A stretch of 42,056 bases of DNA, from positions 1-42,056 of the IMG/VR virus record IMGVR_UViG_2917413769_000001; one strand, written 5' to 3'. The translations under genes and the position numbers were made by a program. The DNA comes from a virus. Taxonomy: Duplodnaviria; Heunggongvirae; Uroviricota; Caudoviricetes. The notes under the pieces are model-generated. The model was not told the origin of the DNA, ran no database searches, and saw nothing but the letters and a program-made list of their open reading frames with translations. Below, piece by piece: positions 3,401 to 41,664 of the stretch (position 1 is the stretch's first letter; the number at the start of each line of letters is the position of its first letter).

Positions 3401-4120
3401 CTATGCGCCTGGTGTTGGAGGTTCGGAAGGAATATCTGCACTACCTGGTTCGACACCTTTAACCAAGTGCGGGTGATCAATGAGGCTGACCTCACCGGCC
3501 ACTACATCCTTCGTCACGTTCATTGGACCAATAAACGTAGCCGTGGTACTGGTCATCTGGTCAGGATCCTGCACTATTGGTCCGTTAAGGTGCAGCGTTC
3601 CCCCGCCCAAGTAAATATCCTTGGCATTGAGGTAAATGGCGTCTGCTTTCTGCGTAATTGTTCCCGGTTCCACTGTTATTGAACTGACCCCGTCGGCCGT
3701 TTTCAAAATGGCGCCATCAGGACCATATAGCACTATTTTGTTCGGATCCTCCTTCGTCCAACCCACGTTGGATAAAGGTACAAAGAACAGCGGAACCAGT
3801 GATAGCGTTAACGACCTGCTGGCAATCCCGGTCCCCAAGCCTGATACCCCTCGCAGCGAGACATCAGCAGCCACGGTCACCCCTTTATCACCTTCCTGTA
3901 TCGGGTATCTGATGTATTCAAAAGTAGCGACAGGAAGGGTTGTCTGCGGGTACTGAGTGCCATCTGGAAGCATATCGAACTGCACTGTGACGATCTGCCC
4001 ATCAACCGCAACAACATGGCAGGGTAGAGATCGACCGGATATAGCAGTCCGGTCTTCATTTGCCGTATGGATCGCGTTATTCAGAGCCTTCAGGAAAGGA
4101 AAAGTTTGTCCATTGCTCAT
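3401..4120 (-). CDS. Baseplate spike/assembly protein (gpV-like position)
   Basis: 239-aa ORF upstream of W-like gene; by gene order. Confidence 0.3.
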   Translation of the reverse strand: MSNGQTFPFLKALNNAIHTANEDRTAISGRSLPCHVVAVDGQIVTVQFDMLPDGTQYPQTTLPVATFEYIRYPIQEGDKGVTVAADVSLRGVSGLGTGIASRSLTLSLVPLFFVPLSNVGWTKEDPNKIVLYGPDGAILKTADGVSSITVEPGTITQKADAIYLNAKDIYLGGGTLHLNGPIVQDPDQMTSTTATFIGPMNVTKDVVAGEVSLIDHPHLVKGVEPGSADIPSEPPTPGA

Positions 4121-5121
4121 GTTGTATTCTTCGCCAGCGCGACGGCCTCGTAGATTGTCACCCAGGAATTGGTGTTATCAGGGTTAAGGAAATCGCCGAC
4201 ATGGCGCACTGATGTTACCAGGAATTTTCCCGAGAAATTCACTCGGTTACGCAGCGATGAGTACGAGCGTTCACTATTAACCGAAAGGAGCGCCCCTGGT
4301 CCCGAGATAATATTTTCGGGCAAAGCAACCTTCATTCCACAGAACAAATCTGAGCGAAGGGGACACTTGAACGAAACACTGAACATACCAATCCAGTTCG
4401 GCTGGTCAATCAATTCCTGGGGGAGAATTTGAACTGTGCCATCGTCGGTAGTGTTATTGTCGAAAACGCGAATGACCCGGTTTTGCATCACCATCTGCAC
4501 TCCGGTGTAATCAGCACGACTTACATAGGAGAAAGAGTGACTTCGAATTACGGCAGCAAGTTGGGTTAGTCGCGGATAAACACCAGTAGCGGGCTCTGCA
4601 AGCACCAACTGGTCATTGATGGAAATGTCAATTTTGAATCCGGGATAAGCAACTGCCAGCGCGCGGTTGAGCACATCACTTAACTTCTCCCCTTTTTTTC
4701 CATCGAGTGTAATGCTGTTCTCTTGCCCTTTGTCATTCAGCAACGGGCTGGGATTCACCACGAAATTAAGAGACTGATTAGTCCCCTGCCACACCGGAAA
4801 AGGGTTATAAATCTGCCCGCTGAGAATAAGTCCACCCTGATTGGGGTTTGCAAGTGGAAGTCCTGCAGAAAAGCCGGCGATCAAATCGACCCGGCATCCT
4901 GCCAGTTGCGTGCTCTCCCGCAGCATTGAAATTGGCACGCCAAACAGGGAAATTCTGGTACCGCTGGAAACAACGTCATACCCGGTGATTAGTGCGTCGA
5001 ACTGGATTTGTAGCGCTGACCCTGGAGACAGAGAACTGTCAAACGGGCCAATCGGATTACCTGTGTCATCCAGCGGCGTTTTGCCATTTTTGTCAGTTAG
5101 TTCGAGTCTGTAGTATTTCAT
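4117..5121 (-). CDS. Tail protein (gpD-like position)
   Basis: 334-aa ORF between tape-measure region and baseplate genes. Confidence 0.3.
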   Translation of the reverse strand: MKYYRLELTDKNGKTPLDDTGNPIGPFDSSLSPGSALQIQFDALITGYDVVSSGTRISLFGVPISMLRESTQLAGCRVDLIAGFSAGLPLANPNQGGLILSGQIYNPFPVWQGTNQSLNFVVNPSPLLNDKGQENSITLDGKKGEKLSDVLNRALAVAYPGFKIDISINDQLVLAEPATGVYPRLTQLAAVIRSHSFSYVSRADYTGVQMVMQNRVIRVFDNNTTDDGTVQILPQELIDQPNWIGMFSVSFKCPLRSDLFCGMKVALPENIISGPGALLSVNSERSYSSLRNRVNFSGKFLVTSVRHVGDFLNPDNTNSWVTIYEAVALAKNTT

Positions 5122-25868: not shown

Positions 25869-25945
25869 TGGTCCGCCACCGGGGGCTCGAACCCCGTACA
25901 ATCAAATTAAAAGGCTGATGCTCTGTCCTGGTGAGCTAGTGGCGG
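25869..25945 (-). tRNA. tRNA-like element (possible phage tRNA or pseudo-tRNA; anticodon UUU if functional)
   Basis: Reverse complement folds as a cloverleaf: 7-bp acceptor CCGCCAC/GTGGCGG, D-stem GCTC/GAGC with GG loop, T-arm CGGGG-TTCGAGC-CCCCG, encoded CCA; anticodon stem weak (3 WC + 1 GU + 1 mismatch). Confidence 0.35.
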
Positions 25946-34899: not shown

Positions 34900-35036
34900 C
34901 GTAAAAACCCGCCGAAGCGGGCCTGTACGTCCGGTGCCACCAACCAAAGTACACCGGAAATTACACAAAACCAATGAACACCCAATGGGCGCTACCAATG
35001 GCCCGGGGATTATACATCCAAAATTGAGGATCTCAT

Positions 35037-37919
35037 ATGGAATTCTTCTACGTGGTTAAAGCCACTCAGAAATCTGGCAAACCAGATGCAGTCGTCTGGT
35101 TCACTGCGAAAACCGAAGCCCGCGCCAATCTTCGACTCGACGTTGCGCTGGAAGAGGCAGAAATCGAAACCGGTCGCGGGCAGGACTACAACAAACCTGC
35201 ACGTACTAATTTTCCGGTAGTTGATGATCTTCCAGAAGAAGGCGTTGTGGATTTAACCTGGTGCGATCGCTATGAGCTGAAAGAGGACGGCATCAACTGG
35301 GAAAAAATAGTGGTGGCCGAAGTACCCGCGGCGACGGAAGTCACCGCGAACGGCGGCGAAACCATTGACCCTGATCTCAGGGTTGATGCGGACGACGACG
35401 ATAAAACCGAATATCCGGTTGCAGAAATGGCCTTCAGCCGTCGACTGCTCTCGCAGTTCATCAGCGATGCGACAGCCCATCACATCAATCATTCTCAGCG
35501 TGTTCAGATTATCAAGCTGTCACAGGATGATGAAAACCACTATGTCCAAAACCTGCTTCTTGCGGTCAGAAATGTCCCCGAGCTGGAAAAGTTAAGTACG
35601 GCGCAGCTCTGGAAATTCACTGACGCAATCAAAACTGTTTTCCATACAGAAAAACGTCATGAGCTGTCAATCGTCCTCCGTTTCACCAGAATATGGGCTG
35701 CAAATGATTACATTGACCGTGGCATCCTGGCTCGCGAGTGGGCTGCCGGTAATCGCATCAGTAGCGTGCAGCGTACTGATTCCGGAACCAATGCCAACGG
35801 CGGTTACGTCACTGACCGTGGCGAAGGTGCACACCACACGCTGGATACTCTCGATTCAGAGATTGCCTGCGCCCTTCTGCCTATGGACTTCAACCACTTC
35901 GAGATCCCGGGCAGCATTCTTCGTCGCGCTAAAGAAATCGTGACCAAAAAAGAAGAGCCGTGGAAATCATGGAGCACCATTCTGCGCAATCAACCCGGCG
36001 TTCTTGGCGTTAACCGCACAGCTATTTTTAACCTGATACGTATCGCGCCGGAAAATATTCACCTGACGCCGGTTGCTCATCTGGAGTTCGTTAACCAGAC
36101 CATGACAGCTGAGTTCAATTCCGCGGTTGAGTTATTGCCATTGCATGAAGCTGAGCCCGCAACACAGGGTATTCCCCAACCTGAAAGTAAGGAGCCTCCG
36201 CGCAAATCCTTCTGCACTCACGAAGAGTACCTGAAACGCGTGTGTGAAGAAGGAGCACGCCGCCGCGCAGAGGAGGCGGCAGCACAACCACATAAAGCCG
36301 AACAAGAACTGGTTAAAAATGTCGGAAACGGAATATTCGACGTTACGGCTTTACTGCAGAACTCAGCAACTCATGGCACGAAAAAGGCTACGGAAACCAC
36401 CAGCAATGTGCAGGTTCAAGAAACTGTCAGTGATGAAAAACAGGTTGGTAATGAAATGCAGTCAGGCGAAAGCAGTCTGGAAACTGGTGAAGAGTCACAT
36501 CCCGGCCAGCAGGCCGATGTAAACCAAAATACGGAATCTGTCGCCCAAAATAGCGATTCTGTAAACCAGACTGAACCAGTTTTGGCACACGCCGAGCCAG
36601 AGGCGCAATCTGACGAACAAGCGGTTGTTTACCCCGCTTACTTCGAGCCTGGTCGCTATGAAGGTCTGCCGAACGAGGTTTACCACGCCGCCAACGGCAT
36701 CAGTTCCACCCAGGTAAAAGATGCGCGCGTTTCGCTGATGTACTTCAATGCGCGCCACGTTGAGAAAACCATCGTCAAAGAGCGATCCGCAGTGCTGGAC
36801 ATGGGAAACCTGGTACATGCGCTGGCGTTGCAGCCAGAGCAGCTCGATGAAGAATTTAGCGTTGAACCCGTAATTCCGGAAGGCGCATTTACCACCACGG
36901 CAACGATCCGCTCGTTTATTGATGCGTACAACGCCAGCCTGCCAGCGCAACTGAGCGCAGACGATATCAAAGCTTTGCTGGAAAAGTACAACGCCACCCT
37001 GCCAGCGCTGGTGTCGCTGGGCGCTGGCCTGGATGAAACGGCGCAGAACTATATGGCGCTGCCAGCTGAATTCCAACGTATCGATGCAGACCAGAAGAAG
37101 ACAGCAACAGCAATGAAGGCGTGCATCAAAGAGTACAACGCCACCCTGCCAGCGCAGATTAAAACCAGCGGCAGCCGCGACGCGCTACTCGAACAACTTG
37201 CGATTATCAATCCTGACCGGGTCGCGCAGGAAGCTCAGAAGCTGCAACCGCTGAAAGTCTCTGGCACGAAGGCCGATCTGATTCTGGCAGTGAAAGCTGT
37301 CAACCCGGAAGCCGTATTTGCCGACGAACTGATCGATGCATGGCGCGAAAACCCGGAAGAAAAAGTACTGGTTACCCGCCAGCAACTGAGTACCGCATTA
37401 GCCATTCAGAAAGCCCTTCTTCAGCACCCGACCGCCGGCAAGCTGCTGACTCACCCGAGCCGAGCCGTTGAGGTGAGCTACTTCGGGTTTGACGACGAAA
37501 CTGGGCTGGAAGTCCGTGTGCGTCCGGATCTGGAAATCGACCTGGACGGCGTGCGTGTCGGCGCAGACCTGAAAACCATCAGTATGTGGAGTGTTAAGCA
37601 GGAAAGCCTGCGCGCCAGGCTACACCGGGAAATTATTGAACGTGATTATCACCTGAGCGCGGCTATGTACTGCGAAACCGCGGCGCTGGATCAGTTCTTC
37701 TGGATATTCGTCAACAAAGACGAGAACTACCACTGGATCGCCATTATTGAGGCATCCGCAGACCTGCTGGAACTGGGCATGCTTGAGTACCGCAAAATGA
37801 TGCGCGCTATTGCAACCGGCTTCGACACTGGGGAATGGCCAGCGCCGATCATTGATGATTACACCGACGAACTTAACGACTTCGACCTGCGCCGCCTTGA
37901 AGCGCTGCGACTGGCTTAA
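35037..37919 (+). CDS. recE: RecE-like exonuclease VIII (C-terminal PD-(D/E)xK nuclease)
   Basis: 960 aa; N-terminal NFPVVDDLPEEG and DRGILAREWAAGNRIS...GGYVTDRGEG resemble RecE as recalled; C-terminal VRPDLEIDLDG...ADLKT nuclease motif; followed by RecT-like gene. Confidence 0.75.
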   Translation: MEFFYVVKATQKSGKPDAVVWFTAKTEARANLRLDVALEEAEIETGRGQDYNKPARTNFPVVDDLPEEGVVDLTWCDRYELKEDGINWEKIVVAEVPAATEVTANGGETIDPDLRVDADDDDKTEYPVAEMAFSRRLLSQFISDATAHHINHSQRVQIIKLSQDDENHYVQNLLLAVRNVPELEKLSTAQLWKFTDAIKTVFHTEKRHELSIVLRFTRIWAANDYIDRGILAREWAAGNRISSVQRTDSGTNANGGYVTDRGEGAHHTLDTLDSEIACALLPMDFNHFEIPGSILRRAKEIVTKKEEPWKSWSTILRNQPGVLGVNRTAIFNLIRIAPENIHLTPVAHLEFVNQTMTAEFNSAVELLPLHEAEPATQGIPQPESKEPPRKSFCTHEEYLKRVCEEGARRRAEEAAAQPHKAEQELVKNVGNGIFDVTALLQNSATHGTKKATETTSNVQVQETVSDEKQVGNEMQSGESSLETGEESHPGQQADVNQNTESVAQNSDSVNQTEPVLAHAEPEAQSDEQAVVYPAYFEPGRYEGLPNEVYHAANGISSTQVKDARVSLMYFNARHVEKTIVKERSAVLDMGNLVHALALQPEQLDEEFSVEPVIPEGAFTTTATIRSFIDAYNASLPAQLSADDIKALLEKYNATLPALVSLGAGLDETAQNYMALPAEFQRIDADQKKTATAMKACIKEYNATLPAQIKTSGSRDALLEQLAIINPDRVAQEAQKLQPLKVSGTKADLILAVKAVNPEAVFADELIDAWRENPEEKVLVTRQQLSTALAIQKALLQHPTAGKLLTHPSRAVEVSYFGFDDETGLEVRVRPDLEIDLDGVRVGADLKTISMWSVKQESLRARLHREIIERDYHLSAAMYCETAALDQFFWIFVNKDENYHWIAIIEASADLLELGMLEYRKMMRAIATGFDTGEWPAPIIDDYTDELNDFDLRRLEALRLA

Positions 37920-38629
37920 TGGAGGATTTGACCATGCAAAATACTAACATCATCACGACTGAGCAGGCTCCAAATACCATTTCTGCCAGTAACGCAGTAT
38001 TCAACGTTCAGGCTCTCGGGCAGTTGACCGCCTTTGCTGACTTGATGGCGCAATCAGCGGTAACCGTTCCTGCGCACCTGGCGGGTAAGCCCGCCGACTG
38101 TATGGCGATCGTCATGCAGGCGATGCAGTGGGGCATGAACCCCTACGCCGTTGCGCAGAAAACACATCTGGTTAACGGTGTGCTGGGCTATGAGGCTCAA
38201 CTGGTCAATGCCGTGATTGCCAGCTCAAACGCCATCAAGGGCCGGTTCCATTATCGCTATGGCGGAGAGTGGGAGCGCTGCACCCGCACGCAGGAAGTCA
38301 CGCGGGAGAAACACGGGAAGAACGGGAAATACAATGTCACCGAGCGCGTGCGCGGATGGACTGATGAAGACGAAATCGGCCTTTACGTCGAGGTTGGCGC
38401 CGCCCTGCGCGGTGAGACTGAAATCACCTGGGGTGAGCCGATCTACCTGTCAGGTGTTGTCACTCGCAACTCGCCGCTTTGGGTGTCGAACCCGAAACAA
38501 CAGATCGCGTACCTGGCTGTGAAGTATTGGGCCCGCCTCTACTGCCCTGAGGTCATTCTTGGCGTCTACAGCCTGATGAAGTTGATCAGCGTGAAGAGCG
38601 CGAAATTAACCCGGCACCACAGCGTATGA
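37919..38629 (+). CDS. recT: RecT/Bet-family single-strand annealing protein
   Basis: 236 aa; QWGMNPYAVAQKTHLVNGV resembles the Bet/RecT QYGLNPW region; start overlaps recE stop. Confidence 0.55.
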   Translation: MEDLTMQNTNIITTEQAPNTISASNAVFNVQALGQLTAFADLMAQSAVTVPAHLAGKPADCMAIVMQAMQWGMNPYAVAQKTHLVNGVLGYEAQLVNAVIASSNAIKGRFHYRYGGEWERCTRTQEVTREKHGKNGKYNVTERVRGWTDEDEIGLYVEVGAALRGETEITWGEPIYLSGVVTRNSPLWVSNPKQQIAYLAVKYWARLYCPEVILGVYSLMKLISVKSAKLTRHHSV

Positions 38630-39039
38630 GTCTGACCGAAATCGCCGATGGAAAAGCCGATGCGTCCACAGGCTCACAGGAACCAGTAGTGAGCATCGAC
38701 GCTATCGCCGATGGGTTCCGCGCACGCATCGAAACAGCAGAGACACTGGAATCAGCCTCCGCTGTCGGTAACGACATCAACGAAGCAAAAGCCACGCTCG
38801 GCACTGCGCTGTTCACCGAGCTGAAGAATAAGGCGACACGCCGCTATCACCAGGTTAACGCCAAAAACAAAGTTGACGCAGTGATCAACTCGCTGCCGCA
38901 GCCGGGTGAACCTGATGCTGCAGAGCGGTTCGCCGAAGCTGAGCGAACGCTGGCCGCCGCGAAACGCCATCTCGGCGACGAGCTGCACGACAAGTACAGC
39001 ATCACCCTCACGGATATGAAACCGGAATACGTGGGCTAA
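38626..39039 (+). CDS. Hypothetical acidic protein
   Basis: 137 aa; ATG overlaps recT stop (ATGA). Confidence 0.35.
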   Translation: MSLTEIADGKADASTGSQEPVVSIDAIADGFRARIETAETLESASAVGNDINEAKATLGTALFTELKNKATRRYHQVNAKNKVDAVINSLPQPGEPDAAERFAEAERTLAAAKRHLGDELHDKYSITLTDMKPEYVG

Positions 39040-39073
39040 AGGAGGCGGGAGGGTTCGCCCTCCCGGTAACGAC

Positions 39074-39418
39074 ATGAGCAAATCATTAAATGCACGTTGC
39101 ATCCGTCGATGGACTATTGAATTTAAAGGCCGCTGCGACTCGAAATACAGCCCGTATTGGCGCAAACGTGACCTCCGGGGTTATATCCGTGAAGCTGCGC
39201 TAACAACGGCTTCCTGCATGGTTGAGCGTATGGCAGAAGACAACGCCAAGTTTGACTATGAAGGCACAACTATTGGCTGGTCGCCAGAGTTTTCTGCCTG
39301 GTACGACGAACGCCGGGAACAGTATCTCAAAGAGGCACTAACTTTCCTCGATGAAGAAGCTACTACCGACGAAATCGACGAAGAAATACAAAACGAGCTG
39401 GAGGCCTGGAATGACTGA
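39074..39418 (+). CDS. Hypothetical protein
   Basis: 114-aa ORF with acidic C-terminus. Confidence 0.35.
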   Translation: MSKSLNARCIRRWTIEFKGRCDSKYSPYWRKRDLRGYIREAALTTASCMVERMAEDNAKFDYEGTTIGWSPEFSAWYDERREQYLKEALTFLDEEATTDEIDEEIQNELEAWND

Positions 39419-40058
39419 GCGCGGAATGATTTTCAATGTTCACCAGGTGCGCGCCCTGCTTGATGGAAGCATGGCGCAGGTTCGCCGAGTGATGAAATCG
39501 CAACCTGACGAAGATGGCCTGGCGAAATTAATCGATGGACCATGGATTGATACCAGCGAGCAAATTTATCTGTGCCCGTTCGGAACTGTGGGTGATCGCC
39601 TTTGCGTCAGAGAACCATTTTCACGTCTCGCCTCATTTAACTTTTTCAACCCTGCAGTGCCGCATGAAGTTCCAGATTTCTGGTATTGGGCCGATGGTGA
39701 TCCAGAATGGGGAGACTGGACTCGGCCACAATCTGGCGCAGTAATGCCTCGCGCCGCAAGCCGAATCACTCTGGAGATAACCGGAATCCGCGTCGAGAGA
39801 CTTCAGGCTGCTGATGAATCAGACTTGCTGAATGACCTTGGCGACATGCTTGAACACTGCGACACCGTAGCGGGACACGCCTTTAATCATGCCGAACATT
39901 ATGCAATCGCTGGCGTTTCGGTTGGGATGTGCCCAGAAATGCATGGCTTCAAAGCGTGGTGGGACAAGGTTAATGGCTCTGGCAGCTTCGACGCCAACCC
40001 TTGGGTCTGGGTAATCGCATTCAGACGGATCGATGGGGGTAACCATGAAGCTGATTAA
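39411..40058 (+). CDS. Hypothetical protein, possibly ASCH/PUA-like fold
   Basis: Start at internal ATG 39411 (GGAGG RBS); pattern MIFNVHQVRALLDG...GDRLCVREPF...WVWVIAF loosely resembles ASCH domains. Confidence 0.3.
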   Translation: MTERGMIFNVHQVRALLDGSMAQVRRVMKSQPDEDGLAKLIDGPWIDTSEQIYLCPFGTVGDRLCVREPFSRLASFNFFNPAVPHEVPDFWYWADGDPEWGDWTRPQSGAVMPRAASRITLEITGIRVERLQAADESDLLNDLGDMLEHCDTVAGHAFNHAEHYAIAGVSVGMCPEMHGFKAWWDKVNGSGSFDANPWVWVIAFRRIDGGNHEAD

Positions 40059-40299
40059 CCGCGGCAGCAAACAGTCCCCACTGGCGCACCGGGCATGCGA
40101 CATAGCACTGGCGACACATGCAGAGCGCTACGGCGACTACGGACGCAGCAAAATGAAAGAGACGTACACCGTCAGAGTGGAAGGTGTAAAGGTCTGGGTT
40201 GAGGTGGTGAACCGGAAGGCGAGCTACGTGGCCACGGCGATGACAGGTATGCGTCGGCTGCGCTCGTGCGGGCAGAGGAGAAATAATGATGACATCTGA
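40045..40299 (+). CDS. Hypothetical protein
   Basis: Internal ATG at 40045 with GGGGGT RBS; about 84 aa. Confidence 0.3.
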   Translation: MKLINRGSKQSPLAHRACDIALATHAERYGDYGRSKMKETYTVRVEGVKVWVEVVNRKASYVATAMTGMRRLRSCGQRRNNDDI

Positions 40300-40624
40300 A
40301 ATGGCAATTCCAGCGAAAAAGGCGGCTGAAATTCTGGATGTTTCAACCAGGACTATTTACCAGTTGATTAACTCAGGGCAGTTGGCCGGTAAGAAGATAG
40401 GCAATAAGTATCGAACAACCGCATCAGCATGCCTTGCATATTTGTATTCCCCGCAAGAAACTAAACAGGCGAACGCGGGTGATCATAAAGGAGATAATTT
40501 ATGTCAATCACCCTCAGAGGCGGTGTGTGGCACTGTCATTTCTTTACGCCGTCAGGAAAAAGAGTTAGACGCTCTCTTGGTACGGGGGACAAAAAGCAAG
40601 CGCAGGAACTGCACGACAAACTGA
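40286..40624 (+). CDS. xis: Excisionase (Xis/AlpA-type HTH)
   Basis: [31 protein letters not shown]; directly upstream of and overlapping integrase. Confidence 0.55.
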
Positions 40625-41664
40625 AGGCAGAGGCGTGGCGGGTAGATAAGATAGGGGATCTTCCGTCCAGATCTTTTGAAGAATGTTGCATCCGCTGGAT
40701 ACGGGAAAAAGAGCACAAGCGTGCTCTTGATGATGACAAAACCAAGATAGAGTTTTTTCTGCAACATTTTTCGGGCAGGGACATTTCGTCTATTACGGCG
40801 AATGATGTATACGGCGTCGTCGAAGGGATGACCAACAGAAAACATTATCAGAACTGGGTTAGCAGCAGGGACGCTGCAATCAGGAAAGGAAAGGAACCAC
40901 CGGAATACAAGCCAAAGCTGGTTAGCCAGGAGACAAGGGCACAGCATCTGTCATTTATGCGGGGTCTTTTCCGTATAGCTGAGAAGGACTGGCTCTGGAT
41001 AAAGGATGCACCTGTTATCAAGGTGAGAAAGCCAGGGAGCAAGCGTATCCGCTGGCTCACTAAAGATGAGGCCTCACGGCTAATCGAATGCGTTTCTGAT
41101 GATTTAAAGCCGGTCGTTACTTTTGCGCTGGCGACAGGACTTCGGCGCTCTAACATTATCAACCTGGAATGGCAGCAGGTCGATATGCAAAGGAAAATTG
41201 CCTGGGTAAATCCAGAGGACGCTAAAGCGGGAAAGGCTATCGGCGTAGCCCTGAATGATACCGCATGCAAAGTGCTTCGCGATCAGATTGGAAAACATTC
41301 CAGGTGGGTTTTTGTCTACACGAAAGCAAAACATCGACCTGATGGAACAATCACCCCCGCAGTCAGGAAAATGAGTCTCGGTAACCATAAAGGATGGGAT
41401 GCGGGTCTGAAGCGAGCCGGAATCGAAAATTTTCGCTTCCACGACCTGCGCCATACCTGGGCAAGCTGGCTGGTTCAGTCCGGTGTCCCGTTATCCATTT
41501 TACAGGAAATGGGTGGATGGGAATCGATTGAAATGGTCCAGAGATATGCGCACCTGGCCCCTAATCATTTAACGGAGCACGCACGGAAAATTGATCTGAT
41601 TTTTGGAAGCAGCGACACAAATACGACACAGGAAATAAGTCAGGCAGGATTGAGGATAGCGTAA
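40501..41664 (+). CDS. int: Tyrosine integrase, P22-like family
   Basis: 387 aa; catalytic-region motifs [14 protein letters not shown] and VQRYAHL; close resemblance to P22 Int as recalled; ends 16 nt from a tRNA gene. Confidence 0.9.

Follow-up and report, generated by a model that had tools for sequence, protein, structure and literature searches.

A broken or mis-sequenced recT and three accessory genes between recT and xis of a Rac-like Escherichia prophage

Which genes occupy the slot between recT and xis in the prophage on IMG/VR record IMGVR_UViG_2917413769_000001, and what might they do there? The window, by which we mean the whole stretch of 42,056 nucleotides (nt) of this Caudoviricetes record that was analysed, has four open reading frames (ORFs) at this place, all on the plus strand: ORF1 (38626-39039, 137 amino acids (aa)), ORF2 (39074-39418, 114 aa), ORF3 (39411-40058, 215 aa, or 235 aa if started at an earlier ATG within ORF2) and ORF4 (40045-40299, 84 aa, or 88 aa from 40033). 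A first-pass annotation had described them as four uncharacterised genes in an accessory slot, none of which matches a nameable family. Positions and strand of the four ORFs stand, and three of them, ORF2 to ORF4, are accessory genes in the slot that holds ralR/rcbA in Rac. ORF1 belongs to recT, which leaves three separate genes. The statement on families has to be revised, as ORF4 belongs to DUF4060 (Pfam: PF13269), ORF2 to phrog_6675, ORF3 to phrog_874 and ORF1 to the RecT-like PHROG 561. Taken as a whole, we give a probability of about 70% to the explanation that the region forms the distal end of the early-left (recombination) operon in a lambdoid, Rac-like prophage, which is integrated beside tRNA-Arg(UCU) in Escherichia sp. 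E1130.

The RecT-domain ORF (37919-38629, plus strand) is matched by the Pfam RecT domain (Pfam: PF03837, E-value 2.1e-35) over residues 41-218. The Pfam domain itself does not reach ORF1, which is a C-terminal extension. PHROG 561 covers both ORFs in order, with profile positions 271-464 on the RecT ORF and 500-619 on ORF1 (E-value 2.2e-40). In a three-frame translation the ORF1 frame extends upstream as ...PDEVDQREEREINPAPQRMSLTEI..., continuing from ...YCPEVILGVYS of the RecT frame, and intact homologues read ...GVYSPDEVDQREEREINPAPQRMSLTEI... without a break. The frameshift site lies at 38572-38573 (plus strand), where the window has CC and the intact contig L007 has CCC. L007, a Logan assembly, has no substitutions over 5,958 aligned bases and one extra C, and it encodes an uninterrupted RecT of 368 aa, the length of the long-form gene (37919-39039, plus strand) that in the window is split by a 1-nt deletion into 37919-38629 and 38626-39039. 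Relatives of about 75% nucleotide identity, namely two E. coli prophages and Klebsiella phage 5 LV-2017, are uninterrupted as well. One uninterrupted ORF spans the RecT core and the ORF1 region at 12 viral loci, at 7 genome loci and in L001, L002 and L004, that is in 22 of 22 related loci, where L001 and L002 were judged from their reading frames and L004 from its annotated RecT. Together, the RecT ORF and ORF1 of the window align end to end with the long-form RecT of Gifsy-1 and Klebsiella phage 5 LV-2017 (ARB15715.1, 362 aa), including the C-terminal ...DMKPEYVG, and in both cases the gene follows a RecE-type exonuclease. Unlike that long-form gene, the recT of the window is split by the deletion. 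BLAST finds no similarity between the RecT of the window and that of Rac (269 aa).

These comparisons show that ORF1 is the C-terminal third of a long RecT, shifted out of frame by the 1-nt deletion, and not an independent gene. Because the relatives and L007 encode RecT and ORF1 as one ORF, the ATG at 38626 is an internal Met codon of the intact RecT, where it is conserved (QRMSLTEI, QKMSLADI). This ATG overlaps the stop codon of the shifted RecT frame as ATGA, which would be compatible with translational coupling of a true stand-alone ORF1 to a truncated recT. That reading is close to refuted by the conservation of the same Met codon in intact RecT, by the fusion of the ORF1 region to RecT in all 22 related loci and by the database records, in which neither the 137-aa product nor the truncated RecT (236/231 aa) is found in any other assembly. 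A programmed frameshift was considered and rejected, as the site, AGC-CTG, has no slippery heptamer and the otherwise identical L007 is simply one C longer.

The recT of the window either is a pseudogene or carries a sequencing error. In a base-by-base comparison with the window, the Logan contig L006 (SRR6148301) has a single C at the recT site. Over about 6 kilobases (kb) three contigs thus differ by indels and by no substitutions, with a C run of 1, 2 or 3 bases at one site, and we are therefore cautious on whether the deletion is real. L006 carries a second 1-nt deletion, in int, at the place matching window position 40852 (CAGAACTGG to CAG-ACTGG), which suggests indel-prone sequencing in the SRR6148301 assembly. 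Together with the lack of the truncated products in other assemblies, these observations favour a sequencing or assembly error, in which case the true genome would have an intact recT and ORF1 would not even be an ORF. Two or three C make a rather short run for an error of the homopolymer type, however, and the window derives from an NCBI assembly, so that we put the chance of such an error at slightly less than even. The C-terminal domain of Red-beta binds its exonuclease partner. By analogy, a RecT truncated at this point would probably be defective. Either way the annotation is corrected: one supposedly unknown gene is the tail of recT, and the RecET system of this prophage is broken or mis-sequenced.

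The recT stop codon is followed by a conserved spacer of 34 nt (39040-39073, plus strand), which consists of a Shine-Dalgarno sequence, AGGAGG (39040-39045), a hairpin (39046-39065) and 8 nt before the ATG of ORF2. On the transcript the order is AGGAGG, CGGGAGGG-UUCG-CCCUCCCG, GUAACGAC and AUG, with a stem of 8 base pairs (bp) of G+C and a UUCG loop. The 58 nt at 39028-39085 fold with a minimum free energy of -21.1 kcal/mol. Among 21 distinct related loci the 20-nt hairpin is 97.9% conserved per position, compared to 87.7% at third codon positions of recT and 72% downstream. The Shine-Dalgarno sequence and hairpin of the spacer are conserved above the flanking coding sequence in related prophages, whatever gene comes next. 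The distant locus L107 has a different hairpin of 9 bp at the same place, and in L001 the loop is inverted. There is no terminator-like U run after the hairpin and no Rfam match to it.

No Shine-Dalgarno sequence lies within the normal range of the ORF2 start; the upstream one is 28 nt away. Folding of the hairpin would bring it to about 8 nt from the start codon, so that the spacer may act as a split ribosome-binding site, or it may be a module joint. Split ribosome-binding sites bridged by a hairpin occur in genes 38 and 25 of phage T4. As in these two genes, a distant Shine-Dalgarno sequence is parted from the ORF2 start by a stable hairpin; for ORF2 the translational effect is predicted from sequence. 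The bridging role is proposed from the spacing, and it weighs against it that the stem scarcely varies, so that covariation offers next to no check. An element that stabilises or processes the mRNA, or a recombination joint, would account for the hairpin equally well.

ORF2, ORF3 and ORF4 are, as judged from comparative sequence data, real genes under purifying selection, because they have 288, 6,801 and 158 homologue clusters, respectively, and low pairwise dN/dS (ratio of non-synonymous to synonymous substitution rates) values of 0.04-0.20. ORF2 matches phrog_6675, a family without annotated function, with an E-value of 4.4e-66 and residues 1-114 on profile positions 1-114. Scans of Pfam, NCBIfam and PADLOC found nothing for ORF2, and PDB searches, by sequence and by profile, returned no significant match. 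The 288 clusters are counted at 90% identity; among 1.84 billion representatives, searched exhaustively, there were only 45 matches, nearly all of them fragments, and the named members are nearly all from Enterobacterales. By these counts ORF2 belongs to a very small Enterobacterales prophage family. The protein is confidently predicted as a four-helix bundle, with a basic N-terminal half and a strongly acidic last (C-terminal) helix, and its model has no informative structural neighbour. In L001 (E. coli EH09-18-41, 4117-4647) the annotation marks the homologue of ORF2 as frameshifted and has a gene of only 64 aa in the place of ORF3; therefore the cassette appears to decay in some lineages.

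The AlphaFold model of ORF3, built from an alignment of 44 sequences, has a predicted local distance difference test (pLDDT) score of 86.8 and a predicted template modelling (pTM) score of 0.79. It displays the PUA-like fold with a five-stranded beta-barrel by which the ASCH superfamily (Pfam: PF04266) is recognised, and ORF3 is therefore modelled as an ASCH/PUA-like beta-barrel with a helical insert. The loose resemblance of the 215-aa protein to ASCH proteins that the first-pass annotation had proposed is thereby borne out at the level of the fold, with the catalytic residues absent. E. coli YqfB and other ASCH N4-acetylcytidine amidohydrolases (Pfam: PF04266; PDB: 9kyf, 2z0t, 3s9x, 1xne) are half as long as ORF3, which, unlike these YqfB-type proteins, has a helical subdomain of about 60 residues and two loop insertions and scores below the Pfam ASCH threshold. 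In a Pfam scan of the 44 family members, ASCH was the sole recurrent family, found in 12 members with a best E-value of 2.4e-4, all of them below the threshold. For ORF3 of the window, the Pfam, NCBIfam and PADLOC scans were empty and the PDB sequence and profile searches returned nothing significant.

Nearly all of the 6,801 ORF3 homologue clusters are unnamed or called "morphogenetic protein", and none has a Pfam domain. Relatives occur in 302 sequenced phages, with hosts from Klebsiella and Pseudomonas to Salinibacter, Flavobacterium and Myxococcus. The public record of Klebsiella phage RothC already labels its ORF3 homologue as "ASCH domain protein". A family of about 6,800 clusters and 302 phages, annotated almost always as "hypothetical", can now be connected with the ASCH fold and with the catalytic motif of the YqfB type.

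This motif is found at the start of the ORF3 family consensus, MKERGxIFNxxMVRAILDGRKTQTRR, in which GRKTQTRR corresponds to the octapeptide GxKxxTxR of YqfB-type ASCH proteins, with the same residue numbers as in YqfB. The YqfB mutants K21A, T24A and R26A are inactive (PMC6972931), and in Thermus ASCH (TthASCH), EOLA1 and TRIP4 the Lys and the Glu/Thr of the motif are essential for the removal of N4-acetylcytidine (ac4C) from tRNA (bioRxiv 10.64898/2026.02.27.708502). The family consensus agrees with GxKxx(E/T)xR, including the essential Lys and Glu/Thr. ORF3 of the window does not: its octapeptide is GSMAQVRR, so that Met21 and Val24 stand in place of the essential Lys21 and Thr24 of YqfB, and Arg26 is kept. 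Out of 113 close homologues that were scored, 67 have K..T.R and 39, the nearest relatives of the window, have Met at the Lys position and mostly Val at the Thr position. K..T.R is also found in 66 of 80 viral loci with an ORF3 relative. Pairs of Met-type proteins have dN/dS values of 0.12-0.20, and these proteins keep the invariant residues R25, R67, E68, M112, P113 and R118. The subclade of the window also keeps the Arg-rich positions of the family (R25, R26, R67 and R118) and E68.

Because the Lys and Thr of the motif are gone, yet purifying selection persists and the invariant residues are kept, we infer that the Met-type subclade would retain the predicted binding function without the YqfB-type chemistry. 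In this scheme ORF3 may bind RNA or DNA without catalysing a reaction, with a modified cytosine as a possible target, and its Lys/Thr-bearing relatives are probably N4-acyl-cytidine-type hydrolases. Several points speak against this assignment. ORF3 of the window has no Pfam ASCH match even at an E-value of 10. The hhalign comparison of the ORF3 family with YqfB aligns residues 5-26 with residues 5-26, that is the motif region only, and is short and weak (E-value 0.008, probability 4.9%). The mapping of Met21 and Val24 to the catalytic Lys and Thr is proposed from the motif register and the predicted fold, and the Lys and Thr may be non-catalytic in the ORF3 family altogether.

ORF3 could also be an active enzyme that uses other residues, for example the invariant Arg67-Glu68, or a metal-dependent single-stranded RNA ribonuclease as in the ASCH protein of Zymomonas. 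We regard this as unlikely though worth keeping in mind, since none of the ASCH proteins tested stays active once the motif Lys is lost (PMC6972931; bioRxiv 10.64898/2026.02.27.708502) and ORF3 of the window has neither the Lys nor the Thr. An extension of the non-catalytic binding assignment, to which we attach only a small probability, is that the Met/Val subclade is a catalytically dead "reader" or sponge derived from an N4-acylcytidine hydrolase. It would bind a modified base in host tRNA, DNA or a small nucleotide and shield the induced prophage from host defence or from its own recombination enzymes, with ORF2 and DUF4060 as partners. If this were true, the Lys/Thr-bearing family of about 6,800 clusters would comprise widespread and unrecognised phage enzymes of RNA or DNA de-modification. 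As a natural subclade lacks the catalytic pair, the family lends itself to asking if N4-acylated cytosine is erased or read by the ASCH proteins of phages.

ORF4 clearly belongs to Pfam DUF4060 (E-value 1.8e-32; 111.8 bits, with the cut-off at 21; positions 1-71 of the 74 in the profile) and to phrog_1852. The 120 matches listed for this family are at least 75% identical, and the dN/dS of ORF4 is 0.06-0.09. A literature search on DUF4060 found no paper, and there is no relative in the PDB. All of the 13 viral loci with ORF4 have it on the downstream side of the ORF3 relative, as the next gene in 10 of them and at a distance of 200-225 nt in L056, L059 and L062, and in those of the 13 where int was detected ORF4 lies upstream of int. 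The last 11 residues of ORF4 (40267-40299) differ from the DUF4060 family consensus, SLPGQVS, exactly at the overlap with the start of xis. This divergent end is consistent with a recombination joint to a different xis/int module. Weak matches of ORF4 to Shiga toxin B (E-values 0.04-0.7) vanished when the family profile was used, and we rejected this relationship as chance.

Gene neighbourhoods were compared in the 80 viral contigs with an ORF3 relative and in 24 genome loci with ORF2. Among the viral contigs, ORF2 occurs in 8, DUF4060 in 13 and RecET in 12-14. Other neighbours include DksA/TraR zinc fingers, YqaJ exonucleases and Dam, MT-A70 and C5 DNA methyltransferases. At the genome loci the gene after ORF2 codes for an ASCH protein, a methyltransferase or something unrelated, and it always starts at an ATG inside the ...ELEAWND codons of ORF2. 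In the window these last codons contain the Shine-Dalgarno sequence GGAGG (39400-39404) and the ATG at 39411, and this embedded start signal would explain the near-invariant C-terminus of ORF2. All genes starting in the ELEAWND codons (39397-39418 in the window; L088-L111) begin with MT. We also considered ORF2 and ORF3 as an obligate pair and rejected it, as ORF2 stands beside other genes at the genome loci and occurs in either order relative to ORF3, which precedes ORF2 in two of them.

By these comparisons the slot is mosaic, with ORF2, ORF3 and DUF4060 combining variously in related prophages; therefore we treat them as independent modules with shared conserved joints. The candidate joints are the hairpin after recT and the 3' end of ORF2 with the GGAGG and ATG of the next gene. 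Both are small and clean examples of lambdoid joints that preserve expression signals.

The cryptic Rac prophage of E. coli K-12 has the layout kilR, ydaE, racC, recE, recT, ralR/ralA, rcbA, xisR and intR. Its ralR/ralA/rcbA slot has the same operon order and position as the block of the window; the cargo differs, being unrelated to ralR/ralA/rcbA, and no antisense small RNA (sRNA) was detected by Rfam. BLASTP found no match of ORF2, ORF3 or ORF4 to RalR or RcbA at E-values up to 10, and PADLOC had no matches for these three and a match at chance level (E-value 0.023) for ORF1. Our working guess is that ORF2 and ORF4 are accessory cargo of the kind that Rac carries as ralR/rcbA in this place.

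A joint anti-restriction or anti-defence cassette, as a counterpart of ralR (Lar) in Rac, would agree with the position of ORF2, ORF3 and DUF4060 in the ralR/rcbA slot, with their translational coupling and with the ORF3 relatives that lie within 2.5 kb of clusters represented by Dam, MT-A70 or C5 methyltransferases, in up to 20 of the 80 loci when the three clusters are summed. We nevertheless find such a cassette improbable. The partners are not obligate: ORF2 occurs with methyltransferases or other genes instead of ORF3, ORF3 occurs without ORF2 in 72 of the 80 viral loci and DUF4060 occurs without ORF3. The lack of similarity to RalR and RcbA and of PADLOC matches argues in the same direction.

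We judge it to be just as improbable that DUF4060, ORF2 or both are excision or recombination helpers, DUF4060 with Xis/Int and ORF2 with RecT. DUF4060 is always near the int end, and in L001 and L002 no xis is annotated between DUF4060 and int; ORF2 directly follows recT across the conserved spacer in 13 of the 32 loci where it is present. Neither DUF4060 nor ORF2 gave a match to a DNA-binding or recombinase-related domain, however, and ORF2 also occurs far from any recT. Returning to accessory cargo as the preferred reading of ORF2 and ORF4, the block contains nothing beyond the known kinds of prophage accessory genes and is no new kind of system, and these findings will not surprise a phage specialist.

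Over its final 7 kb the window matches, at 100% identity, a contig (PDIL01000010.1) of GCA_004745435.1, the NCBI assembly that is the source of the window, and a protein of the PDIL01000010.1 record is attributed to Escherichia sp. E1130. The gene order, on one strand, is kilR, ydaE, recE, recT, ORF2, ORF3, DUF4060, xis and int. Upstream of recT lies a RecE-type exonuclease of 960 aa with Pfam PF06630 and a PDDEXK-like domain, and upstream of recE there are Pfam matches to KilR and YdaE, with BLAST E-values to the K-12 proteins of 1e-12 for KilR and 2e-14 for YdaE. Successive genes overlap via their stop and start codons, by 8 nt for ORF2/ORF3, 14 nt for ORF3/ORF4 and 14 nt for ORF4/xis. The excisionase gene xis (40286-40624, plus strand) has an HTH_17 domain (Pfam: PF12728, E-value 6.9e-09) and matches the excisionase family phrog_2907 over its full length (E-value 2.4e-33). 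Downstream of it lies the tyrosine-type integrase gene int (40501-41664), with tRNA-Arg(UCU) beyond. The overlap of xis and int is 124 nt and appears to be a conserved arrangement, the same overlap being found in five related viral contigs (L028, L031, L038, L058 and L083). A search of the window for a second copy of the attachment site (att) found no repeat of at least 20 nt, and Rfam found no known RNA family within 38500-40700.

Outside this region, Rfam reports a match to isrB, an Hfq-binding sRNA, at 34902-34996 on the minus strand (41.7 bits compared to a gathering score of 35). It is antisense, sits immediately upstream of recE and reaches into the end of the region with the ydaE-like gene. 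A tRNA-Lys(UUU) gene is located at 25869-25945 on the minus strand, apparently inside the prophage. Within recE there are three copies of a 27-nt direct repeat (36922-37155), which encodes ...YNA(S/T)LPA... in the central region of the exonuclease.

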